DNA from: a virus
IMG/VR virus record: IMGVR_UViG_3300035534_000060
Reading direction: 5' to 3' (one strand)
Length of the DNA: 61,473 nucleotides
Position numbers and translations under genes: made by a program. Below are positions 3,813-53,635 of the stretch, in pieces; positions within the stretch are counted from its first letter, which is position 1, and each line of letters opens with the position of its first letter. The notes under the pieces were generated by a model. It worked only from the letters and a program-made list of their open reading frames with translations, made no database searches and was not told the origin of the DNA.

Positions 3813-4925
3813 ATGTTAAAGGCTTACAAGTATAGAATGTATCCTGATGAAAAACAAATTGAAATGTTCCATAAACATTTTGGGGCATGTAGATACATCT
3901 ATAATTGGGCGTTGGAAAATAAAATTAAATCTTATGAACAAGAAGGCAAATCGATTTCAAGATTTGAATTAAATGGGAAAATTCGGATGTTGAAAATGGA
4001 GTTCGAATGGTTGAAAGAAATTAATTCTCAATCATTGCAAGGTGCTACTCTTAATCTGGATAATGCTTTTACCAAGTTTTTCCGTGAGAAAAAGGGTTTT
4101 CCTAAATTTAAATCAAAGAAAAATCCGGTACAATCATTTTCTGTTCCACAACATTATGAGGTGGATTTTGATGGTAACAAAGTGAAACTTCCCAAAATTG
4201 GTTGGATTAAGACAAAGTTACATAGACGTTTTGAAGGTAATTTGAAAACTGCAACAATATCAAAAACACCATCTGGTAAATATTTCATTAGTATTCTTGT
4301 AGATGACGAAAAAGATTTGCCTGCCAAACAAAAGTTTAATGAAAACAATACGGTTGGTATTGATGTGGGAATTAAGGATTTTGCCATTACTTCTAATGGT
4401 GAAAAAATAGATAATCCCAAGCATCTTAATAATTCAATAAAACGTTTGAAAGTATTGCAAAAGCGTCTCTCACGAAAACAAAAAGGTTCAAAAAACAGAG
4501 AAAAAGCAAGACAGGAGATAGCAAAACTTCATGAGAAAATCGCAAATCAGAGAAATGATTTCCAGCACAAGTTGACAAGTCGACTCATAAGCGAAAACCA
4601 AGCGATTGCACTGGAAACATTAAACATATCTGGAATGTTGAAAAATCATTGTCTTGCACAATCCATTAATGATGTATCATGGAGTTCTTTTGTAACCAAA
4701 TTGGAATATAAAGCAGAATGGTACGGAAAAACAATTCTCCGTATCGGACAGTTCGAGCCATCTACTAAAATATGCAATATCTGTGGGTATCATAACAAAA
4801 AGATTACACTTGCAGACCGTAAATGGCAATGTCCTGATTGTGGTGAAACTCATGACAGAGATGTCAATGCTGCAATTAACATTAAGAAGTTTGCCTTAAA
4901 TAAACAGAATTTGATAGGTATTTGA
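3813..4925 (+). CDS. tnpB: TnpB (OrfB) RNA-guided endonuclease-like protein
   Basis: N-terminal LKAYKYRMYPDEKQ; RuvC-like GIDVGIKD, ALETLN, HDRDVNAA; zinc finger CNICGYH...CPDCGETH. Confidence 0.85.
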   Translation: MLKAYKYRMYPDEKQIEMFHKHFGACRYIYNWALENKIKSYEQEGKSISRFELNGKIRMLKMEFEWLKEINSQSLQGATLNLDNAFTKFFREKKGFPKFKSKKNPVQSFSVPQHYEVDFDGNKVKLPKIGWIKTKLHRRFEGNLKTATISKTPSGKYFISILVDDEKDLPAKQKFNENNTVGIDVGIKDFAITSNGEKIDNPKHLNNSIKRLKVLQKRLSRKQKGSKNREKARQEIAKLHEKIANQRNDFQHKLTSRLISENQAIALETLNISGMLKNHCLAQSINDVSWSSFVTKLEYKAEWYGKTILRIGQFEPSTKICNICGYHNKKITLADRKWQCPDCGETHDRDVNAAINIKKFALNKQNLIGI

Positions 4926-5638: not shown

Positions 5639-6170
5639 TTTTTTTTATTCTTTTTAATAAAGTAAAGTTGTTTTGTAGTTCATATTATCGGATTTCTGTT
5701 TACTTTAATATTATAGTATATTACTATTATTTACCTATGTGAAACTATTTGTTCACCTATATAAATGTAATTATACTCTGATGTATATATTAAATTTCGA
5801 TAGGTGGGCTGATAGTATTTAATATAAAAACTTGCATCAAAATTTTGAAAAATTATTTTTTTTCTGTGTACTTTAATATTATAGTAATAAGTATTCTATA
5901 TTGTATTATGATATATCACATGTAATAATAATTTATACTGTAAATACAAGGGGCCCAATTTTTCAACCGAAAAAGGGCCAATTTTTTAGGCCCCTTGACT
6001 TAAAGTACACAGAAATAAAGTAGTACATGTCCTAATAATTAAAAACTAATAACAAAAAACATTATCAGGAGAACGATTAGGAAATAAAAACCTTTAATCG
6101 TTATAGGTTTAAACGTTTAAGGTTTTTCATTTATTTTCCCATTAATGTTGAAACCAAACCTATTTATAGA

Positions 6171-6589: not shown

Positions 6590-6931
6590 ATGGAAGAAAT
6601 GACTGAAAAATTTGCGGAAGAGATGGAAGAGTATTTGGCCGATAGAGATATTTCCCTTGATGGTGTTAGTGATCGTTATTTGAAATATACTTTGCAGAAG
6701 ATGCTCAAGGAAGAGGCTGACCCTGCTGAAATGGCGGGCATATGCCTGTTGATGTATCAGCGTAAGAATAATGAAATAGAAAAGTTGGCCAAATTCTTGT
6801 ATATGGATGCCAATGAAGGTAGTTCATGGAATAATATCGATCATTTTGTTAAAGTTGCGTGGAGAATGGAGGCGCAATCTATGCTTAGAAAAGTCGCTCT
6901 ATATGAAAAATTTAAGGAGTCGTGCAAATGA
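6590..6931 (+). CDS. Hypothetical protein
   Basis: 113-aa ORF with the same 22-nt start context as the 6421 ORF. Confidence 0.45.
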   Translation: MEEMTEKFAEEMEEYLADRDISLDGVSDRYLKYTLQKMLKEEADPAEMAGICLLMYQRKNNEIEKLAKFLYMDANEGSSWNNIDHFVKVAWRMEAQSMLRKVALYEKFKESCK

Positions 6932-7092
6932 ATAAGGAAGATGTGCGCATATTTGGGTACGCCTGCATCCTTGTGGGTGTGCCCTATGGCTTCCTTGTGT
7001 GGGCTGATGCCATTAATTATAGTTTGATGGGGCCTGCGTATGCCATTGGAATAACTTTGGGCGGCCTGTTGATTGCGCTGTTGGCGAGGTGA
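6928..7092 (+). CDS. Small membrane protein
   Basis: 54-aa hydrophobic ORF overlapping the previous stop (ATGA). Confidence 0.3.
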   Translation: MNKEDVRIFGYACILVGVPYGFLVWADAINYSLMGPAYAIGITLGGLLIALLAR

Positions 7093-7096
7093 CCCA

Positions 7097-7353
7097 TGGG
7101 GGTAATTGGTCTATAATTATATTTTCTATTTTTAAGGGGTCTTCGGATGGGGGTATCTTTTTTATACTGGTCGGCTGATTGCGATTTTATTTTTGGGCTG
7201 ACCGAAAATTTTTTGTAGGATGACAAATTGCATATGTAACCGATTTGTTACGCATTGGCTGATAGCGATTTTGACCAGTGGGGGTAAAATGCCAATGGGG
7301 GTATTTTTGTGGAAAGGGGTATTTTGAATGGGGGTCAAATTTGAGATGGGGTA
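7097..7353 (+). repeat. Array of about 7 TGGGGGTA-type motifs plus two GGCTGAT(T/A)GCGATTTT repeats
   Basis: Motif copies at about 7097, 7148, 7279, 7296, 7315, 7329, 7347; direct repeats at 7173-7188 and 7257-7272. Confidence 0.7.
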
Positions 7354-7684
7354 TAATGTGGATAAATTTGCCGTTTTTTGGCCTTCAGATTATATCCAGA
7401 TAAGCCTGAGAACGAACAGAGATAGCCATGACAAGCATTTTGACCCTCTACACGACCTATGACCCTCGTAGAGAATTTAAACGCCACACAGACGCTCTCA
7501 CAGCCCCAAAATAGGCCATTCTATCGCCCGCTATCGAAAGCAATATCACAAATATTATTGATGCCCACTGATTTTCGCTATCGGTAGGCACATTTCCTCG
7601 GCCTAATGCCACAAAATTCACTCAATTTTATAACAATTCATACGATCACAATTAAATTCGGACATAAAAATAAAAACTTAATTT

Positions 7685-7813
7685 AAAAATCGTGACAATT
7701 TTGGGCAAAACAATTACTATCAAATAAATTTTTAAAAATCGTGACAAACATTTTAAAAATCGTGATAAAGTTTAAAAATCGTGATTAAAAATCGTGATTA
7801 AAAATCGTGACAA
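7685..7813 (+). repeat. Iteron array: 6 copies of AAAAATCGTGA(C/T)(A/T), last three tandem with 14-bp period
   Basis: Copies at about 7685, 7734, 7755, 7774, 7787, 7800 in an ORF-free region. Confidence 0.8.
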
Positions 7814-7841
7814 AGGTTGGGCCCTTTTAGACTGTAACGGC

Positions 7842-8100
7842 GTTAACATTCGAAAAAATTTTTGAATGTACACATCTGTACATTGATGTACATATCTGTA
7901 CATTGGTGTACACATATGTACAATAGAAGGTTTTTTAGATTGTTAGCCCCGTTAACATTGGCCGATTCTTTTAACTGTAACACTGTTAACAATTTATAGA
8001 GTTAACGGCGTAACGGCCAAATTTAATTTAGGTTGTTCATACTGTTAACTTTATAAATTATTAACGGCGTTAACATCATAAAAAAGCCCCGATTGTTAAC
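7842..8100 (+). repeat. Cluster of 7 GTTAAC palindromes, several within TTAACGGCGTTAAC
   Basis: GTTAAC at 7842, 7951, 7985, 8001, 8044, 8069, 8095. Confidence 0.7.
7867..7922 (+). repeat. Six tandem 10-bp repeats, each beginning with palindromic TGTACA
   Basis: TGTACA at 7867, 7877, 7887, 7897, 7907, 7917 (one helical turn spacing). Confidence 0.8.
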
Positions 8101-8313
8101 GGCATGAACTGTTATAGCGTGTGCCGGCTCTCTCACCTGTCCGGCCTATAGGGCGCCCCGGATACCCTGTGTCTAATTTACTACATGCTTTAAACCTATA
8201 TAAAGGTTTTTATTTATTACAAATAGAAACCTATATATACCATTAGCCCCTATAGAATGTTGCCCTTAGGGGCGGGATGTATGAATGGATGCAATTGAAG
8301 AATTGTATGGTAT

Positions 8314-8390
8314 AAATAGAAACCTATATATACCATTAGCACCTATAGTAGATTGTGGCCAGGGGCGGCCCTAATAAGCCTCAATAATAA
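8314..8390 (+). promoter_or_regulatory. Promoter-leader cassette (AAATAGAAACCTATATATA ... GTGGCCAGGGGCGGCCCTAATAAGCCTCAATAA) for 8407..8595
   Basis: Near-identical 75-bp copy at 8972-9050; partial copy at 8221-8275. Confidence 0.55.
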
Positions 8391-8406
8391 ACAGGAGTTG
8401 TAAGAA

Positions 8407-8595
8407 ATGAGCACAGTATTTTCCGAAGAGAACGGTTACACAAACGGATACTGTCCGGCTTGTGGGTACAATCCGGTAGAACCAGAATTCCCAATCTTCC
8501 AATTATTTGGAGATGGGGAGTATATAAGGGGGCATCAAATATGCCCTAATTGTAGGGAACTGCACCCAATTAATGAAAATATGGACGCAATCTAA
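8407..8595 (+). CDS. Small zinc-ribbon protein
   Basis: CPACG...CPNC pairs; driven by repeated promoter-leader cassette. Confidence 0.45.
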   Translation: MSTVFSEENGYTNGYCPACGYNPVEPEFPIFQLFGDGEYIRGHQICPNCRELHPINENMDAI

Positions 8596-8622
8596 TTCTT
8601 TTTTTTTTGGAGGTTAAGGCAA

Positions 8623-8871
8623 ATGGAATTTGATATTAACGAAAAAATAGCAACGATTCAAGAATGGCCTATAATAATAGAAATCTATTCCATTGATCAT
8701 GGAATAGATGAGAAGATTACATTTAAAAGCTTCGATATTAACGGGCGGCCTATGTCAGCCCGTAAATGCACAAATACAATATACACCAGCCCTAGAGACG
8801 GACGGGCCTATTTCAAACATTTTGGGGCCCGTTACTATCTAGATAAAGCTATTATGGCGGGGGCGGTTTAA
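8623..8871 (+). CDS. Hypothetical protein
   Basis: 82-aa ORF with GGAGG SD. Confidence 0.4.
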   Translation: MEFDINEKIATIQEWPIIIEIYSIDHGIDEKITFKSFDINGRPMSARKCTNTIYTSPRDGRAYFKHFGARYYLDKAIMAGAV

Positions 8872-8971
8872 ATGGATGCTGCAATGATAGGCCTAATAGG
8901 CCTAATCCTTTTAATGGTATTGGGCCTATTCTTAGGCTGTTTGGTTATGATCAAATACTGGATGAGGACAT

Positions 8972-9050
8972 AAAAATAGAAACCTATTTATAGGATAAGC
9001 ACCTATTACTAATTGTGGCCCGGGGCGGCCCTAATAAGCCTCAATAAAAT
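8972..9050 (+). promoter_or_regulatory. Second copy of promoter-leader cassette, for 9068..9622
   Basis: AAAAATAGAAACCTATTTATA plus the same GGCC-rich leader as 8314-8390. Confidence 0.55.
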
Positions 9051-9067: not shown

Positions 9068-9622
9068 ATGAATAAATGTGAAAATAGGATAGATGAAGAG
9101 TACAATAAAACAATTGAAGCCTTCAATAATATGGAGATAGGCAGCGAGGAATTTAACGAATATGGCCTCGATTTTAGCCTAGTCGAGGCGGGCACGTTCG
9201 ATGATCAGCCCGAACCTTATTATAGGTACCAGTTGTCATGGGGCGGCCCTTCGGAGGAAATAAGAATTTTCGAAGGCGGCCGGGCTGAATATTGGTTTAT
9301 GGACTGGTTTGACGGGGCTAGCCGTGAATGCAGCGATGAACCAATTATTAAAGAAATAATAAACTTTTTTGATGAAGTCGGCCTTATAGATTGGACCGCC
9401 CTCATCCCAGAGCGCTGCGAGAATTGCAGCGAGATTATAAGCCCCGAGACAGGCCTATATTGCAATGAATGCCGCCCGTATAACGTGGAAATATCCTTAA
9501 ATGACTTATCACGGGATGAAGTTATAGAGGCCCTCGAAGGAATTATAGAGGCCGTTAAGGATGAATCTGAAAATTTGATAAATGTAGATGATGATTATAC
9601 ATTCATAGAGGAGGCTGAATAA
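9068..9622 (+). CDS. Highly acidic hypothetical protein
   Basis: 184-aa ORF rich in D/E with scattered Cys pairs (CENCSE...CNEC). Confidence 0.45.
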   Translation: MNKCENRIDEEYNKTIEAFNNMEIGSEEFNEYGLDFSLVEAGTFDDQPEPYYRYQLSWGGPSEEIRIFEGGRAEYWFMDWFDGASRECSDEPIIKEIINFFDEVGLIDWTALIPERCENCSEIISPETGLYCNECRPYNVEISLNDLSRDEVIEALEGIIEAVKDESENLINVDDDYTFIEEAE

Positions 9623-13404: not shown

Positions 13405-14133
13405 TTAAATTTTTAATTTGTCCACAGCAATCTCATATGGCACTTTAAAACTATGTGCGCTCCATGTATATTCACCATCATCACATTCAAAAACAAGGTA
13501 GCCGCAGTCATTTCCATAGGTGACTTTGCCTTTCCTCATAAATCCATCTTTCCATTTCCATGCAGGCGCAATAACACCAAGCATATCTTCCCAGCCAATG
13601 AAATGCAAATAATGTGCGTGACCCCTCAGAGCAACATCTACATTACCATATGTTTCAGGATACATCTTCATGGCCTCAAGATCGCCATTCAGACTCGTTC
13701 CACGGCCTTTCAGCGTTGAACTAGTGCCCACAGCATGCTTCAAATGGAAATCTACACCATCGACCTCAACATGTTTATCAATGTCAAATGTACCGCCGAT
13801 TAAATCCATAACATTTCTATCGGCACTACCATTTGACCCAACATGATAATCAGAACCTTGAACACCAACAAACACATCAGCATCAATCATGCGCAACATA
13901 CCCGCAGCATGCTCTATTTGCAAATCAATATCATTAGTCCAATTGCCAACTCCATCAGATTTTTTATTCTTACCATTAACTGAATCGCCAAGAACAAAAA
14001 CCACATCATAATGCTCGTTACACATATTACGCCATTGTTCCCAGAACATTTTCTGCACTTTATTTTGTCCAACAGCGCAACCATACATATTAGCCCAACT
14101 CGGCATGACAGATGCCATGCAGCCAACATGCAT
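13405..14133 (-). CDS. Calcineurin-like metallophosphoesterase (start uncertain)
   Basis: Motifs SDMHVG (read through the annotated Met), VFVLGDSVNG, RGHAHY; no canonical start between the upstream stop and the ATG. Confidence 0.55.
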   Translation of the reverse strand: MHVGCMASVMPSWANMYGCAVGQNKVQKMFWEQWRNMCNEHYDVVFVLGDSVNGKNKKSDGVGNWTNDIDLQIEHAAGMLRMIDADVFVGVQGSDYHVGSNGSADRNVMDLIGGTFDIDKHVEVDGVDFHLKHAVGTSSTLKGRGTSLNGDLEAMKMYPETYGNVDVALRGHAHYLHFIGWEDMLGVIAPAWKWKDGFMRKGKVTYGNDCGYLVFECDDGEYTWSAHSFKVPYEIAVDKLKI

Positions 14134-17789: not shown

Positions 17790-19292
17790 ATGAATTTAGA
17801 TCAGATAAATGAATATATGGAGGAGCAAGATTATGACAAACGCCAAAGAAATTATGTCAACTTGCTCTGTAATACTTTTAACATGAAAAATGCTAAAGGT
17901 GAATTATTTCCTTATAGGCCTGAAAAATATCAAATAAATTATCACGCTCATTGTATGCTTGCCATGAAAGACTATCCTCACCGTATTTGGCGTAAAGCAA
18001 GGGGTGTCGGGGCAACTGCTACTACAATGATGGATGCTTTGATGGTTTCACACAGATTCAGAAAACAAACAATACCAGTAGCATCTATAACAGGCGAACA
18101 GGCATCTGTACCAATAGATTGGTCAATTGAATTGGCTGATAATACACAAATAGACGGCTTTTTTAATAGGCGGCAAGATGTGACTACTCGATGTGTATTA
18201 GATAATGGAAGTACAATTTTTGTAGTTCCGGGGCAAAAACCTGACTCTTTACGTAGTTACCGTTCTGTATTTGTTGTATATGATGAATTTGCTTTCCATG
18301 AATATCCACGCAAAATAAAGATTGCTGGTGATAGATGTGTTTCTGAAGGCGGCCAATTAAATATTCTTTCAACTGTTAATGGTACAGAAAACGAGTTTTG
18401 GAGACTTCTTGAAAATGCTGAAGATTTTGGTTATAAGGAATTTTCAGTACCTATGTTTGATCCAGAAAAGTTTGATATAAAGAAGCCTATACCGTATCAA
18501 ATTGAGCAAGGTTGGATTAAACCTATCGCCCCATGGATGAATATAGATATGCTTGAACGGGATAGAAAGAGTGACCCGATAGCGTTTATGCAAGAAACCC
18601 AATGTAATCCAGAAGACGGCGCTACATCATTCATGCCTACTGCACTTCTTTACAGAGCATCTAGAGAGCCATATATGATAGAGCAGGATGCCAGAGAAGG
18701 ATTCGGCATATATGTATGTGGTATTGACTTTGCTACTGAAAAAGATATGTCTGCATTTGAAATTTTTGAAAAAGTGCCACAAGGTTGGATACATCGCAAA
18801 AGAGTTGCTGTACAAAAGCATGATACGCCTCAGCAAGTTCAACTATTAAAAAGTTTGCATAGAGCATTTAATTTCAAATATGTGACTATAGATATGACAG
18901 GCCCGGGTACAGGATTTTACCATTATGCTAAAGAGCAGCTGCAAACTGAAGTGATTGGAATAAATTTCTCTACAAGGCACATCATTGAACCAGATAATCA
19001 ATATTTATATAGAAAAGCAGATAAAAATGTTAGAAAGGATGGAAAAATTTCCATACCAATTAAAAGAGCAATGGCTACTCATATGAAGAAAGAGGCTGAT
19101 GAAGGTCGATTGCTATTTCTTAATTATCCAGAATATATTAAAGATTTGCATTCAGTACCATATGATTCGCTTGATGCAAAGCGCAATAAAAATCATCATG
19201 GTGATGAGTTCTGGGGCAGCGCATTGGCATTATGGGGATACCAGATGCATGAGAATAGAATATCCATACCGCCAGTTTCATTGAGGTATTAA
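17790..19292 (+). CDS. Terminase large subunit (putative)
   Basis: 500 aa directly upstream of portal-sized gene; RGVGATAT P-loop-like, VFVVYDEFAF Walker-B-like, acidic C-terminal nuclease-like half. Confidence 0.6.
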   Translation: MNLDQINEYMEEQDYDKRQRNYVNLLCNTFNMKNAKGELFPYRPEKYQINYHAHCMLAMKDYPHRIWRKARGVGATATTMMDALMVSHRFRKQTIPVASITGEQASVPIDWSIELADNTQIDGFFNRRQDVTTRCVLDNGSTIFVVPGQKPDSLRSYRSVFVVYDEFAFHEYPRKIKIAGDRCVSEGGQLNILSTVNGTENEFWRLLENAEDFGYKEFSVPMFDPEKFDIKKPIPYQIEQGWIKPIAPWMNIDMLERDRKSDPIAFMQETQCNPEDGATSFMPTALLYRASREPYMIEQDAREGFGIYVCGIDFATEKDMSAFEIFEKVPQGWIHRKRVAVQKHDTPQQVQLLKSLHRAFNFKYVTIDMTGPGTGFYHYAKEQLQTEVIGINFSTRHIIEPDNQYLYRKADKNVRKDGKISIPIKRAMATHMKKEADEGRLLFLNYPEYIKDLHSVPYDSLDAKRNKNHHGDEFWGSALALWGYQMHENRISIPPVSLRY

Positions 19293-21480: not shown

Positions 21481-22803
21481 ATGCCATTTGCAGGATACGA
21501 TAACTTTAAAAATTGTGTGAAGCAGAATCAGGATAAAGAAGACCCAGAGGCATACTGTGCTGAAATACAGGAACAGGTAGAAGGGAGTGATGATATAACT
21601 GAAGATAATAATGTGGGTAGTGTTACATCAACCATACCTATAAAAATTATCGCTACTGAAGATGAAAATATTTTTACAATAGCAGCAGCAAAGGTTGGAA
21701 GTAAATCTTTTGGTGCATCTGGTAAAAAATATGTTTTTACAGAAGAAGCACTTAAAACATATGCTGAATCATGGAATGATGGGATTATTACTCTCAATCA
21801 TAGAAGATTGGATGATGGTGTCATTGTATCTTCATGGTATGATGAAGAAACGCAAATGGTTATGATGAATATTAAAGCAGATAATGAAGAAACTGCTAAA
21901 CGTATTCGTGACGGTGAACCAACCGGTGTTTCCATTGAAGCAAATGTACTTGACAGTGATGATGATGGAAATATTCTCTCTTTTGATGGTACTGGAGTTG
22001 GGATAATTTTTTACCCTGAACAGCCAGCATGTCCAGCAAAAGATGGATGCGGTATTCTTGCCAAAGAACAGTTTGATGAAAAGATTGTTACCGCAAGCGA
22101 AAAGAGGCAAGAAAAGATCAAATCATCTGAGTACGATTTAGCCCGAACAAATGATGCAGGCGACACAATAAAAATTGCTGAAGTAGTCATTTGGGATGAT
22201 ATGGGTGAATTTGAAAAAGATGTTGAATGGCAAATTATCAATTACGTTACTTATTACGGCGAAGGCAGTTATGAACTACTTGAATATTCCGATACGAAAG
22301 TTGGGGATACTGTATCTGGTACACCAGAATATACCGTAAATATTAGCGTAAATAAATCTACTACTAATGGAGAAATCTCTATGGCAAATGATAGCGAACC
22401 CGAAGTAATTGCGAAGGCTGATTATGAAGCCCTCGAAGCAAAGATGAAAAGTCTTGAAGATACACATAAGGATGAGATTGAGGCAAAAGATTCTGAAATC
22501 AAAGAACTTAAGGATGAAATCAATAGGCGTGACAGTGAGATTGCTGCATCACTTGTTGAGGAAATTAAGGCTTGGGATACAGAATTTGAACCTGAAGAAG
22601 GAATGCCACTCTCTACTATTCAGACTATTCATGCATCTGTGAAACGTGCCATTGCTGTACAGGAAGAGGCAAAGGCAAGCGAACAGGAAGAAGAGCCTGA
22701 AGAGGAAATTGAGGCAAGTGAATTTACTGCACCTGAGGCAGGAAAGAAATCTGATGGCTTTACCATTGGCGGAATTGTCAACGGCAAATGGGTCAGCAAA
22801 TAA
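21481..22803 (+). CDS. Putative scaffolding and/or prohead-maturation protein
   Basis: 440 aa between portal and capsid; acidic coiled-coil C-terminal third. Confidence 0.35.
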   Translation: MPFAGYDNFKNCVKQNQDKEDPEAYCAEIQEQVEGSDDITEDNNVGSVTSTIPIKIIATEDENIFTIAAAKVGSKSFGASGKKYVFTEEALKTYAESWNDGIITLNHRRLDDGVIVSSWYDEETQMVMMNIKADNEETAKRIRDGEPTGVSIEANVLDSDDDGNILSFDGTGVGIIFYPEQPACPAKDGCGILAKEQFDEKIVTASEKRQEKIKSSEYDLARTNDAGDTIKIAEVVIWDDMGEFEKDVEWQIINYVTYYGEGSYELLEYSDTKVGDTVSGTPEYTVNISVNKSTTNGEISMANDSEPEVIAKADYEALEAKMKSLEDTHKDEIEAKDSEIKELKDEINRRDSEIAASLVEEIKAWDTEFEPEEGMPLSTIQTIHASVKRAIAVQEEAKASEQEEEPEEEIEASEFTAPEAGKKSDGFTIGGIVNGKWVSK

Positions 22804-47995: not shown

Positions 47996-48490
47996 ATGAT
48001 AATATCAGGAAAGGAAGTAGCCGAGGCTATGATCGAAGGTGTTATAGACGAAAATGTACAGGTACAAGTCAATGGATATGATATGACTCTTAAAAAGGTC
48101 GAAGGGTATCATACAGATAGTAAGGGAATTCTAGACTTTGATAACAGTCAAAGGGAAAAGCCAAATGTTTCAGTAATACCATTTAACTTCAGAGACAGTG
48201 TATTCCTACGCAAGGGCAATTATCTTATCACACTTGACCCTAAGATGGATATACCACTTGATTGTATTGGGCGATTACTACCACGATCATCACTAGTGCG
48301 CATGGGCTGTACAATAGATGCTGGTGTGTTTGATGCCGGATTTTATGGTCGTGGGCAGGTTATGCTTACAGTACATAATTTGGCAGGCATAAAACTTTAC
48401 AAGAATGCCCGGGTTGCCCAAATGGTTTTCGATAGAATTGAAGGCGGCGAACTAGAAGAAGGGTACAACGGTATATATAATGAGGCTTAA
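47996..48490 (+). CDS. dUTPase/dCTP-deaminase-family protein
   Basis: GCTIDAGVFDAGFYGRGQV resembles the conserved dUTPase-fold motif. Confidence 0.5.
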   Translation: MIISGKEVAEAMIEGVIDENVQVQVNGYDMTLKKVEGYHTDSKGILDFDNSQREKPNVSVIPFNFRDSVFLRKGNYLITLDPKMDIPLDCIGRLLPRSSLVRMGCTIDAGVFDAGFYGRGQVMLTVHNLAGIKLYKNARVAQMVFDRIEGGELEEGYNGIYNEA

Positions 48491-49110
48491 TGATGTCTCA
48501 TTTTAAATTTTGTATTAAATGTGGTTGTGATCTAATACCATACAAAACATGGAGTCCATCATATGTGAGGAAAGGTGTCTATAAATGTAAAAAATGTGAT
48601 TATAAACACACATTAGAATGGCAGAAAAATAACAAAGAAAAGCACTTGGAACGAGCAAGAAATTATAATTATATGCGTGGTGGAAAACCCATGTCAGAAA
48701 ACAAAGAATGTTCGTCATTTCTTGGTTGTTATGTTGCTGAACGGGTGTTATCTAAGGTCTTCAAAGATGTTGAAGTAATGCCAAACAACAATCCGGGATA
48801 TGATTTTGTGTGTAATAAGGGTAAGAAGATTGATGTGAAGAGTTCGTGTGTGAGGAATATGGGTAAGAAATCTCCTATGTGGCATTTTAGTATAAGGAAA
48901 AATCTCATACCTGATTATTTTTTATGTCTGGCATTCGATAATAGAGAAGATTTGAACCCACTATATGCATGGTTATTACCTTCATATAAAATTAATTTTA
49001 AAACATTGGTAGGTATATCTGAATCTACGATTAATAAATGGGATAAATACAAGTTAGATATAGGAAAAGTAGAATTATATTGTAAGAATATGAAGGAGGA
49101 GTCACAATAA
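48490..49110 (+). CDS. Zinc-ribbon plus PD-(D/E)xK nuclease-like protein (paralog B)
   Basis: CIKCG...CKKC; same core as paralog A with near-identical nucleotide blocks (e.g. 48798-48842 vs 47688-47732). Confidence 0.5.
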   Translation: MMSHFKFCIKCGCDLIPYKTWSPSYVRKGVYKCKKCDYKHTLEWQKNNKEKHLERARNYNYMRGGKPMSENKECSSFLGCYVAERVLSKVFKDVEVMPNNNPGYDFVCNKGKKIDVKSSCVRNMGKKSPMWHFSIRKNLIPDYFLCLAFDNREDLNPLYAWLLPSYKINFKTLVGISESTINKWDKYKLDIGKVELYCKNMKEESQ

Positions 49111-49853
49111 TGGAATTTCTGGGTGCTAGGATAGTTGGCGGTCATAGATTCTATGACTTTATGTATAATGATAATAATGTAAGTTATCCATCAGTAACAA
49201 CTATGCTGAAGGTACTCCCAGAACCAGATGGCCTCAAATGGTTTAAAAATAATTATCCTGACGCAGAAAAATATACGGCTCGTAGGGCAATGATTGGCAC
49301 TACTTGTCATTATTTTTTTGAATGCCAGTGCGCATATCATTTGCCTGATCATACGCCCGAAATGGAAGAAGTAGCATTTGCAGAACATTTAGATGAAGAA
49401 GCACTGGAATCAATAGGGAATATCAATAGGAAAATAAAAAGTATCATGAGACAACATGATTTTAAACCCATTTCCCTTGAGGATACAGTGTGGTCAGATG
49501 TTCTAAAAGTGGCAGGGCGTGTTGATTATCGAGGCATGTTAAATGGTAAGAAAGTAATCTTAGATTTGAAAACTGCAAAGGCGTTTCATGATGAAACTAA
49601 GACAGAATATTTAAATCGTCTAGATTATATGCAGGATAATGATGGTAAAGCGCCACCCGGGTTTTTCAGTAAATTTGCACTACAATTAAGCACATACAAA
49701 CAGTGCTATAAAGAAAGATTTGGATGGGAAGCCGAGGAACTCTGGATTCTAAGAGTAAATGAGAATAATAAGCCAGAATTGAGACTTCAACCGGATGTAT
49801 TAGAAGATGTAAAAGATGTAAGGGAGATGTACTATGAAACATATGGAGTCTGA
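49110..49853 (+). CDS. PD-(D/E)xK-family nuclease (putative)
   Basis: GRVDYRG...KVILDLKTAK fits D...DxK. Confidence 0.35.
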   Translation: MEFLGARIVGGHRFYDFMYNDNNVSYPSVTTMLKVLPEPDGLKWFKNNYPDAEKYTARRAMIGTTCHYFFECQCAYHLPDHTPEMEEVAFAEHLDEEALESIGNINRKIKSIMRQHDFKPISLEDTVWSDVLKVAGRVDYRGMLNGKKVILDLKTAKAFHDETKTEYLNRLDYMQDNDGKAPPGFFSKFALQLSTYKQCYKERFGWEAEELWILRVNENNKPELRLQPDVLEDVKDVREMYYETYGV

Positions 49854-50610
49854 AATAACGCCAATGTATAATTTCTCAGGGGATGATATAGATCAACTCT
49901 ATAGAGATATAACAAGAACGATAGTAAGAGATGGGAAAGATATTGTTTTTGGACATGAAAAGAAGAAAGCCCGGGAAATACATGCTACAGTACAAATTTA
50001 TGGTAAAGGTATTAAGCGCCTTATGAATGGCAGTGTGCCCAGAAAATTCCCATTCCAAGGAGATAAACTTAAAGAATTTAGGAAGTTGGCAATCGCAGAT
50101 GATGTTAACCCATATGGGAATGATTATACATACCAAGAATTGATGAGAAAATTCCCAACAAATATTAATCAGTTGAATCAGATGGGGCTTATAGTTAAGG
50201 ATAGACAATCTACAGGCATGACAGATAACGGTATTGTAGGTGTATTGTATCATCCCAACATGTGGAAATGGGAAAATAAACCATGCTGGAATTGGCTACA
50301 GTTGAGATATTTGGGAAATAATGAGTATTCGTTGCGATTGCTCTTTAGATCGCATGATTATGGTATGGCTATGTGGGCAAATATGTCATTCATACTTTAC
50401 ATGATAAATTATTTTGTTATGAAGCCAAATGAATGTAAGATAACTGAAATAATTCTTACATCAACTAGCGCACACATCTATGAGAATGACCAAGACAGCG
50501 CTGTAGATGTTGGGGGGATACATTGGTCTAGGGAAGAGGATAAATCTTTACTACATCAATCTCTGGGCTTTCTCAGGGGTATATATGATTATGTTAAGGG
50601 TCAAAATTGA
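49834..50610 (+). CDS. Thymidylate-synthase-fold enzyme with variant active-site residues
   Basis: KPCWNWLQL (vs PCH), LLFRSHDYGMAMWANMSFIL (vs QRSxD...PFNIAS), TSAHIY (vs GDTHLY). Confidence 0.55.
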   Translation: MKHMESEITPMYNFSGDDIDQLYRDITRTIVRDGKDIVFGHEKKKAREIHATVQIYGKGIKRLMNGSVPRKFPFQGDKLKEFRKLAIADDVNPYGNDYTYQELMRKFPTNINQLNQMGLIVKDRQSTGMTDNGIVGVLYHPNMWKWENKPCWNWLQLRYLGNNEYSLRLLFRSHDYGMAMWANMSFILYMINYFVMKPNECKITEIILTSTSAHIYENDQDSAVDVGGIHWSREEDKSLLHQSLGFLRGIYDYVKGQN

Positions 50611-52315: not shown

Positions 52316-52896
52316 GATTTAGATTTTTGGAAGAACTTTGGACAAATGAAGTATCATCACATTTACAATCAAATGGAAATGAAAAGGTTAATCATTGTGT
52401 GGCAATAAGTCTCACAGATATGGGTGGATACCCTATCTATGATTTTCTGGCCATGGAACTTGATCATATGTTGATAGCCCTTGATGAGATGGATGTTATA
52501 GCCAATTCATCTATTATTCCGGGTCACGCATATCTATATAACAAATTGAAATATAGTGTTTTAGCCGCAACTCAAAAATCTTTAACAACAAATGTTAGCA
52601 TTGATGGAATGCTGATAAAAAATGTTCAAGTTATGGATACATATAAAGATATAAACTTTATATTTACTGTATCATATCTTGAAATGTTTCAAGGCTATCC
52701 GATAACATTGTTGGGAATATTAAGAGTTATTGAGGAGGTGTGCGAGACTCATAATGTAGCAGACGATAAGCATATAAACCTGTACATCAATATAGGGTAT
52801 TCATTCATAAACCAACGATTTAAGAATAAAGCAGAAGAATTTGTAAAAATAAAAAGGGAGGAATTTAATGGAACAACTCAAGAAACAGACATATAA
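52309..52896 (+). CDS. Hypothetical protein
   Basis: 195-aa ORF. Confidence 0.4.
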   Translation: MLRFRFLEELWTNEVSSHLQSNGNEKVNHCVAISLTDMGGYPIYDFLAMELDHMLIALDEMDVIANSSIIPGHAYLYNKLKYSVLAATQKSLTTNVSIDGMLIKNVQVMDTYKDINFIFTVSYLEMFQGYPITLLGILRVIEEVCETHNVADDKHINLYINIGYSFINQRFKNKAEEFVKIKREEFNGTTQETDI

Positions 52897-53635
52897 ATCA
52901 CCTTTAAGATACCCCGGAGGAAAAACTAGAGCAATCAAATATATTTATCCATATATCCCTGCTAATGTGACCGAATTATGCTCACCTTTTTTAGGTGGAG
53001 CATCTTTTGAACTATTTTTATCTAGTAAAGGCATAAAAATATATGGTTATGACTTATTTGAACCATTAACTAATTTTTGGAATGTTTTATTAAATAATTC
53101 ATTTCAATTATATGAAACGGTTAAAAAAATGCATCCTATAAGTAAAGAATATTTTTATAAATTGAGAAATGAATATGATAAATATAATAATATAAATAAA
53201 GCCGCAATATTTTATATGTTGAATAGATCATCATTTTCAGGTGCAACATTTTCAGGAGGTATGAGTAAAGGACATCCAAGGTTTACAGAATCTTCTATAA
53301 ACAAATTATATAATTTTAAAAATAATTTAATATCGGTAGAAAATGCTGATTTTGAAATTGCTATAAATAATCATCCTACAAGTTTTCTATATTTAGACCC
53401 ACCATATCTTATTAATGATAATCTTTATGGTGATAAGGGGAATATGCATAAATATTTTGACCATAAAAGATTATATAACATTTTATCTAAAAGAGATGAT
53501 TGGATATTATCATATAATGATTGTAAATTTATACGAGAATTATATTCTGATTATAATATAGTAGATTTGGATTGGAAATATGGTATGTCAAAAAATAAAA
53601 AGAGTAGCGAAATTTTAATAATAAACAAGGAGTGA
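52868..53635 (+). CDS. DNA N6-adenine methyltransferase (Dam-like)
   Basis: N-terminal RYPGGK and FLGGAS; DPPY catalytic motif (YLDPPYL). Confidence 0.75.
   Translation: MEQLKKQTYKSPLRYPGGKTRAIKYIYPYIPANVTELCSPFLGGASFELFLSSKGIKIYGYDLFEPLTNFWNVLLNNSFQLYETVKKMHPISKEYFYKLRNEYDKYNNINKAAIFYMLNRSSFSGATFSGGMSKGHPRFTESSINKLYNFKNNLISVENADFEIAINNHPTSFLYLDPPYLINDNLYGDKGNMHKYFDHKRLYNILSKRDDWILSYNDCKFIRELYSDYNIVDLDWKYGMSKNKKSSEILIINKE

Follow-up and report, generated by a model that had tools for sequence, protein, structure and literature searches.

The genome considered here, that of a phage, carries six copies of the palindrome TGTACA in succession in a gene-free region, and the question that this locus raises is what so regular an array is for. 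The window (the whole stretch of DNA that was analysed, 61,473 nucleotides) ends with the same 57 nt with which it begins, implying a circular assembly of about 61.4 kb. The best explanation that we can offer, to which we would give slightly less than an even chance, is that the locus is a multi-site array for a dimeric protein that reads GTAC boxes, and that it forms an accessory element of an origin or early-control region.

Anatomy of the array

An earlier note on this DNA had described six TGTACA palindromes phased at exactly 10 bp, and a motif search confirms it: exact copies start at 7867, 7877, 7887, 7897, 7907 and 7917, the full read from 7867 to 7922 being TGTACAcatcTGTACAttgaTGTACAtatcTGTACAttggTGTACAcataTGTACA. 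Given how often the motif occurs in the background, the number of six-copy chains with a constant 10-bp step that chance would produce is ~1.3e-16 per window. The core is perfect in all six copies, and no two of the five spacers are alike (in order, CATC, TTGA, TATC, TTGG and CATA). Outside the array TGTACA occurs at 22 sites in the window, against 19.7 expected from shuffling the whole window, so that the motif is neither enriched nor avoided there. A scan for paired sites (TGTACA-N4-TGTACA, with at most two mismatches) found no excess over chance elsewhere in the genome, and the array is the sole locus of its kind.

By the scores of Tandem Repeats Finder, a period of 20 bp (score 93, with 2.8 copies and 89% matches) suits the sequence much better than one of 10 bp (score 51, 68% matches), and the array is therefore best described as three 20-bp units with two cores each, along which YATM and TTGR spacers alternate. 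All five differences among the three units fall at spacer positions, of which 24 are available (P about 0.01), and when the two 10-mers inside the unit are compared, all four spacer positions differ and none of the six core positions does (P about 0.005). On the left, the flank TTCGAAAAAATTTTTGAA base-pairs with the T-run of the right flank in single-strand folds; together with ATAGAAGGTTTTTT it lengthens an imperfect dyad centred at 7894/7895. The coordinates of these and the other features are collected in Table 1.

The statement that the six copies lie on one face of the helix holds approximately but not strictly, because the step is 10.0 bp and a helical turn about 10.5 bp: by simple arithmetic the sites drift by ~17 degrees at each step and by ~86 degrees over the array. 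The earlier note had also placed TGTACA-like cores inside a 57-bp palindromic element, a remark that finds no support. The AAAGTACACAGAA palindromes of that element (21345/21367 and 44201/44223; half sites start at 5694, 5862 and 6002) hold GTACAC and not TGTACA, and a link with the array was rejected, the motif being different and the element separate. The element itself, TTAAAGTACACAGAA-N8-TTCTGTTTACTTTAA, has seven matches against 0.09 expected; one copy precedes the gene at 21481 and the other lies within the divergent helicase / replication-operon region. It probably serves as an operator or as a terminator for both directions. In one IMG/VR contig of the phage there is a break at 6012.

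Table 1. Features of the array, of its surroundings and of comparable loci (window coordinates unless another locus is named)
Feature	Position	Strand or setting	Basis
Six TGTACA palindromes (GTAC boxes), exact 10-bp step	7867..7922	no strand	exact match
Three 20-bp units aTGTACAyATmTGTACAttg	7866..7925	+	Tandem Repeats Finder
Left flank TTCGAAAAAATTTTTGAA, A6T5 near-palindrome	7849..7866	no strand	sequence
Right flank ATAGAAGGTTTTTT	7923..7936	+	folding
1.3-kb gene-free region, all repeat families inside	7093..8406	no strand	gene calls
TGGGGGTA x4 and GGCTGATWGCGATTT x2-3	7060-7340	+	repeat search
Direct repeats TTAAAAATCGTGA x6 (AAAAATCGTGA array), AT-rich	7683..7815	+	repeat search
Right module, repeats of the GTTAAC / TAACGGCGTTAAC type to either side of the array	7826..8110	no strand	repeat search
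77-nt repeats, promoter-like	8218-8294, 8311-8387, 8971-9047	ahead of + strand genes	repeat search
Inverted repeat TTAAAGTACACAGAA-N8-TTCTGTTTACTTTAA	21343-21381 and 44199-44237	intergenic	repeat search
Four TGTACA cores, exact 10-bp steps, before PhdYeFM-PIN operons	L242 5951-5986; L238 3445-3480		

Variation among close relatives

The identical phage is present in IMG/VR, JGI and Logan assemblies, with six copies in every one. Variation was followed across four haplotypes, these being the window, L184 (JGI 3300036940), L252 (JGI 3300035050) and L049 (IMG/VR 3300028034_000003). L184 has six cores with all steps of 10 bp, the third core reading TGCACA. L252 has nine, the third again TGCACA, at steps of 10, 10, 10, 7, 10, 10, 17 and 10 bp, thus leaving the 10-bp phase twice (at the 7-bp and 17-bp steps); its three additional cores are perfect and come with new spacers, CCAT, TATT and TTGT. 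L049 has no cores at all. It is 93-98% identical to the window in most aligned blocks and keeps the left flank TTCGAAAAAATTTTTGAA although the array is missing; it also keeps the neighbouring AAAAATCGTGA array and a GTTAAC-type motif, and its right-hand module (window 7543-8117) has been replaced wholesale and is too diverged for alignment. The AAAAATCGTGA array occurs in all four haplotypes, in six copies in the window and in L049, nine in L184 and ten in L252.

With six, nine or no copies in close relatives, the clear conclusion is that the array is real, fast-evolving and dispensable; its absence from L049 means that it is not essential, and strict 10-bp phasing is not conserved among the relatives. 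The earlier note had named absence from related genomes, or a lack of binding activity, as what would refute its reading, and the first of these two holds for L049. Between the window and L184 the sequence around the array diverges by about 2%, and one of the 36 core positions is changed; the cores show no measurable extra conservation, in a comparison that at so low a divergence has no power.

The haplotypes also differ in a TnpB-type gene (OrfB_IS605 / Cas12f1-like) at 3813-4925, which is polymorphic among them: L049 lacks it at the site used in the window, and has matching flanks elsewhere, at L049 16908-17146.

The surrounding control region

The gene-free region of Table 1 is the phage's main non-coding control region, and five families of short repeats, the TGTACA array included, are largely restricted to it. 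The next gene downstream of the array starts at 8407, 485 bp away, and none is nearer. The region ends, just before that gene, with two of the promoter-like 77-nt repeats (at 8218 and 8311). These have a conserved start, AAATAGAAACCTAT[AT]TATA, and a GGGGCGG hairpin, and stand 60-90 nt before + strand genes; the same starting motif is also found at about 44704 and 55519, ahead of genes. The repeat looks like a phage-specific promoter plus leader.

The copies of TTAAAAATCGTGA, at successive steps of 49, 21, 19, 13 and 13, end about 50 bp upstream of the TGTACA array. Their predicted curvature is 68 degrees (99.9th percentile, the third-highest peak of the genome), as given by a wedge-model calculation. 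Because L049 keeps these repeats and has no TGTACA array, they are the better candidate for conserved origin iterons, if the phage has any. Within the right module lie seven of the window's ten GTTAAC sites, and about eight GTTAAC / TAACGGCGTTAAC-type near-palindromes surround the array. Module and array are inherited together in three haplotypes (the window, L184 and L252); L049 has a diverged version of the module (GTTACGG / GTTAACGG).

A distant relative, L052, which has the family of a 184-aa protein in common with the window, has a comparable repeat-laden non-coding region of 1.4 kb with different repeats; one motif in it, GGGGTATGGGGTATG (6720-6735), resembles TGGGGGTA and GGCTGATWGCGATTT. 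A 131-aa reading frame is called in L252 (2292-2687) and is open in L184. Its equivalent in the window (7328-7620) is broken by a 1-nt difference (ctatgaccc versus ctatggaccc), and it is either a decaying gene or non-coding.

Proteins that read TGTACA

To our knowledge, the N-terminal domain of the Phd/YefM antitoxins is the only fold shown to read TGTACA with one dimer per box. The E. coli yefM-yoeB operator consists of two TGTACA cores 12 bp apart, the paired cores being bound by YefM, and TGTACA pairs are common upstream of yefM genes (PMC1802561). In the crystal structure of the S. aureus YoeB-YefM-DNA complex, two YefM dimers occupy adjacent major grooves with one GTAC box each; Arg10 and Gln11 read GTAC, the flanking T and A are required, and the DNA bends by 40 degrees (PMC7544224). 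Phd/Doc uses GTAC boxes 9 bp apart (PMC7544224). Neighbouring GTAC boxes are bound cooperatively, with bending of the DNA (PMC1802561, PMC7544224).

A scan of 185,579 genomes, by pattern only, found 22 loci with at least four TGTACA at 10-bp steps. In two of them, L242 and L238, which are bacterial, the array is followed after 9 nt and 45 nt by a gene that matches PF02604 PhdYeFM_antitox (at 41.1 and 30.6 bits, against a cut-off of 29.8), with a PIN toxin gene next in each. One of the 22 is near an integrase gene.

Among viral sequences, five IMG/VR contigs (L006, L012, L016, L020 and L023) carry three to five TGTACA cores at 10-bp steps with unrelated spacers; the phages are very divergent, with only about 25% identity between their large terminase subunits. 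The array ends on a gene start, its final core overlapping the ATG for a conserved protein of 87-112 aa, and this gene sits upstream of the genes for the small and large terminase subunits and the portal. The protein and the TGTACA array look like an undescribed regulator-operator pair. The protein has a Cys-rich C-terminus and the N-terminus xFRxxLKxxFxxALxGExVxIERGG, in which a resemblance to Phd/YefM can be seen by eye; hhalign gives a weak match (P 0.002, 13% probability) and neither Pfam nor PDB a match, so membership of the Phd/YefM family was rejected and the resemblance is kept as a lead.

Phased arrays of at least three copies are found 35 times in IMG/VR for TGTACA, 20 times for TGATCA and 14 times for TCATGA. 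Arrays of this kind are generic, those of TGTACA being only about 2-fold more frequent. In 2.9 million viral contigs, the array in the window is the sole one of at least six copies of these three palindromic hexamers that has non-uniform spacers, the others being near-uniform tandem repeats. A metagenome scan with the loose pattern AAATCGTGA returned no locus that aligned to the window, and further conserved DNA patterns searched in viral contigs recovered only two contigs that were already known.

Candidate binders in the phage

Megablast and blastn searches with positions 7000-9000 found no match among 50,697 phage records, nor did the whole phage have a DNA match among them, and Rfam and tRNA searches gave no matches. 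The phage encodes a large terminase subunit, tail proteins, a family B DNA polymerase, a primase-polymerase, an XPD-like helicase, a clamp-loader-like ATPase, RecU, ribonucleotide reductase, enzymes of nucleotide metabolism and a TnpB-type insertion element. No integrase or repressor gene was found in it, and the genes of the lineage are almost all unannotated.

A six-frame profile search of the window and its relatives found no Phd/YefM-like frame (best E about 1-2), PF02604 has no match on their called genes in precomputed Pfam results, and no toxin gene alongside Phd/YefM is detectable in the phage. Pfam also finds no ribbon-helix-helix, ParM, ParA or TubZ genes among the called genes. Among about 70 phage proteins, Pfam and PHROGs identify no transcription factor, the sole hint of one being a sub-threshold helix-turn-helix match in the protein at 2220-2786. 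Given that Phd/YefM is the only fold so shown and that the phage has no recognisable gene for it, a binder would be either a host protein of the Phd/YefM type or an unrecognised phage protein.

Two genes just downstream, one for a 62-aa zinc-ribbon protein (8407-8595) and one for an 82-aa protein (8623-8871), are candidates by linkage only. They are present together with the array in the window and L252 and absent from L049, and this co-occurrence may be simple linkage. The 82-aa protein is modelled as all-beta (pLDDT 82), with no fold match in the PDB at E <= 0.001; the model of the 62-aa protein (pLDDT 47) is unusable. Two other proteins were rejected as coincidental: the 184-aa protein (9068-9622) has a homologue near an array in L008, and L049 has a homologue and no array; the 242-aa protein (13405-14133) has a homologue near an array in L018, and its gene is 5.5 kb from the array in the window.

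The phage also has a D12-class adenine methyltransferase gene (52868-53635), and genes resembling dCTP deaminase, thymidylate synthase and nucleoside 2-deoxyribosyltransferase lie, with the D12 gene, within 47996-50610, 52868-53635 and 58552-58938. GATC occurs 95 times in the window, against about 199 expected from base composition; the nucleotide genes and the low GATC count may point to modified DNA or to restriction avoidance. A link between the D12 methyltransferase and the array was rejected, since the array has no GATC and TGTACA is not avoided elsewhere.

A binding array as the preferred reading

From the anatomy of the array, its non-random character, its variation and the recurrence of the same core and spacing at Phd/YefM genes, which are all observed, we infer binding, the kind of binder and the role. 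Every palindromic GTAC box would take one dimer, which would contact it through the major groove. Adjacent dimers, separated by a turn of the helix, would touch each other and bind in a cooperative manner, and a short filament of protein would form along roughly one side of about 56 bp of DNA. Lying in the main non-coding control region, beside other repeats and upstream of promoter-like elements, the array could then serve as an accessory, strain-variable cis element, for example by modulating the initiation of replication or early transcription.

Cooperative binding by a dimeric protein, as first suggested in the earlier note, is, on indirect evidence, still the best reading. In its favour, the cores are perfect while the spacers all differ, including in the extra cores of L252; the same core and 10-bp step are found directly upstream of PhdYeFM antitoxin genes in two bacterial genomes; in published structures a YefM dimer reads one GTAC box per major groove; TGTACA arrays with unrelated spacers recur at the start of a small gene in five divergent viral contigs; and there is a single such locus in the genome, in a repeat-dense, gene-free setting that is similar in L052. 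Against it, the phage has no Phd/YefM-like frame or other binder that we could find, and, in contrast to all antitoxin operators, no gene start within 485 bp downstream; the centres are 10 bp apart, where the YefM and Phd operators so far characterised have 12-13 bp; L049 has no array, that of L252 is broken in phase, and one core reads TGCACA in both L184 and L252; the cores show no measurable conservation, and arrays of other hexamers are only about 2-fold rarer; and the 82-aa candidate has no DNA-binding fold match, the model of the 62-aa candidate being unreliable.

A special case of such an array is an iteron-type origin element, in which the 20-bp units would be bound by a phage initiator (for example the 920-aa primase-polymerase (AEP) protein) that would help to melt the AT-rich AAAAATCGTGA region, for which curvature is predicted. 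We consider this unlikely. Tandem 20-bp units, equal to two helical turns, have the classic geometry of iterons; the AT-rich repeat array, with its strong predicted curvature, lies 50 bp upstream; the phage has its own replication genes and no mapped origin; and two of the 22 loci, both in bacterial mobile elements, have phased TGTACA 300-400 bp from DUF3987 and DUF5906 genes of primase/helicase type. A Carnobacterium plasmid carries 22-bp iterons containing TGTGTACA, and SaPI origins use 6-12 penta- or hexanucleotide iterons, which are read by the winged-helix domain of a primase-helicase (PMC9371898). However, L049 has the AAAAATCGTGA array without the TGTACA array, the primase-polymerase gene (39677-42439) is 32 kb off and no Rep-type gene is adjacent, GC skew tracks the direction of transcription and marks no origin, and the cores are palindromic and unoriented, unlike most iterons.

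The main rival of the binding array is a functionless hypervariable minisatellite, in which a 20-bp unit with two TGTACA was amplified by slippage and its copy number drifts, an account that we also think improbable. It would fit the range of 0, 6 or 9 copies among relatives more than 90% identical in the flanks, and the adjacent AAAAATCGTGA array varies too (6, 6, 9, 10); 10-bp tandem arrays of other hexamers are common in viral contigs; and the phase breaks and one core mutation are tolerated, no binder having been found. Slippage gives identical units, though, whereas here the spacers vary and the cores are perfect, the extra units of L252 included; it leaves two identical palindromes exactly 10 bp apart in each unit unexplained; and this combination of core and phase is met again in toxin-antitoxin operons and, in unrelated phages, where genes start.

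Curvature, folding and weaker alternatives

The idea that the array is a DNA-bending element finds no support as regards static curvature. In the same wedge model the array has a predicted curvature of 15 degrees, against a genome mean of 21 degrees, and is thus straighter than average. Bendability is possible, from pyrimidine-purine steps phased at 10 bp. A promoter composed of TGTACA, 16 nt and TACAAT (7897-7924), with nine of 12 consensus positions, was rejected, as such sites are below shuffle expectation.

Folding of the array with its flanks gives -30.3 kcal/mol as RNA (z -5.5) and -16.1 kcal/mol as single-stranded DNA (z -4.2). A long RNA hairpin or hairpins in single-stranded DNA, acting as a terminator, attenuator or single-strand initiation signal, would draw on these energies, on the A-run before the array and the TTTTTT after it, and on the lack of any other terminator-like site between the gene end at 7092 and the promoter-like repeats. 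We think this very unlikely: such a folding energy is automatic for a repeated palindrome, a terminator scan calls no intrinsic terminator at the array, and instead of a GC-rich hairpin directly before a T-run there is an AT-rich stem (AU/GU-rich as RNA), with mismatched spacers and the T-run 8 nt past the last core. In addition, L049 has no hairpin at this place, and the insertion in L252 breaks the overall dyad.

By analogy with RNA, the array could act as a decoy, mimicking on replicating phage DNA the operator of a host toxin-antitoxin system of the Phd/YefM type. It would sequester the antitoxin, or the repressor complex of toxin and antitoxin, so that the antitoxin would be derepressed or stabilised and toxin-mediated abortive infection blunted. 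The phage phiTE reportedly expands pseudo-ToxI RNA repeats and so escapes ToxIN, which would be the RNA-level parallel. This would fit a host-specific counter-defence, in that there is no cognate phage gene, the array is dispensable and its copies vary between strains (0, 6, 9); we nevertheless regard it as a long shot. Least probable is a packaging (pac-type) site with repeated hexamers bound by the small terminase subunit, which by analogy might be suggested by the single locus per genome and by the five viral contigs with phased TGTACA just upstream of the module of small gene, terminase subunits and portal, since the large terminase gene (17790-19292) follows the array only after some 10 kb, since the array lies among the early genes with no terminase adjacent, and since L049, which is without the array, must still package its DNA.

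If the preferred reading is right and the array binds a protein, it offers an entry point into the control region of a largely unannotated phage lineage. Should a host antitoxin turn out to bind it, the array would represent a type of counter-defence new for phages; as no more than a minisatellite it would be an ordinary find.

Comparison with known systems

The phage P1 pac site contains seven TGATCA/G hexamers, irregularly spaced, each with a Dam methylation site, within the pacase gene. Like the array in the window it has several copies of a 6-bp palindrome (TGATCA) at a single locus of the genome; the present array differs in its exact 10-bp step, in having no GATC and in lying far from the terminase genes. 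Intrinsically curved elements are not a match, the curvature here being below the genome mean. For a partition centromere (parC, parS or tubC), no partition NTPase or centromere-binding families are found among the called genes.

MetJ met-boxes, the CopG operator, omega heptads and the ParR-parC centromeres are all made of tandem short units bound by ribbon-helix-helix proteins, one dimer per unit, with contacts between dimers along the DNA. The units of MetJ are palindromic, and those that ParR of plasmid pSK41 binds are repeats of 20 bp. In unit length and sequence the array in the window differs from these systems, and no ribbon-helix-helix gene was detected in the phage.

Iteron origins, of which the ori/crr octamers of P4 are an example of the array type, resemble the locus in several respects: they are tandem short repeats in helical register, non-coding, beside an AT-rich segment (which in the window is predicted to be curved), and their copy number varies between relatives. 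With a 20-bp period (2.8 copies, 89%) the array falls within the tandem direct repeats of about 17-22 bp that define them; no initiator gene is adjacent, and the array, which as a set of iterons would be expected to persist in close relatives, is absent from L049. The SaPI origin has two oppositely oriented sets of iterons around an AT-rich centre, immediately downstream of rep (PMC9371898). In contrast, the array is one uninterrupted set of unoriented palindromes, with no rep adjacent, and is absent from a close relative.

The Phd/YefM operators (yefM-yoeB of E. coli and S. aureus, and phd-doc of P1) have two boxes at 12-13 bp from centre to centre, where the window has six at 10 bp. They lie across the promoter, no more than about 80 bp ahead of the antitoxin gene, whereas the array is 485 bp from a gene, and their cognate protein is encoded on the same element, whereas the phage has no detectable Phd/YefM or toxin gene. 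As it does not lie beside a cognate gene, the array falls outside the antitoxin-operator family in its defined sense. The core is nevertheless identical, TGTACA with its GTAC box and flanking T and A, and in L242 and L238 four-copy arrays at 10 bp stand ahead of PF02604 genes. The phasing of TGTACA boxes at 10 bp is, as the scans by pattern show, a recurring operator layout, found before Phd/YefM-PIN operons and before the small gene that precedes terminase genes, and this layout extends the published two-box model of 12-13 bp.
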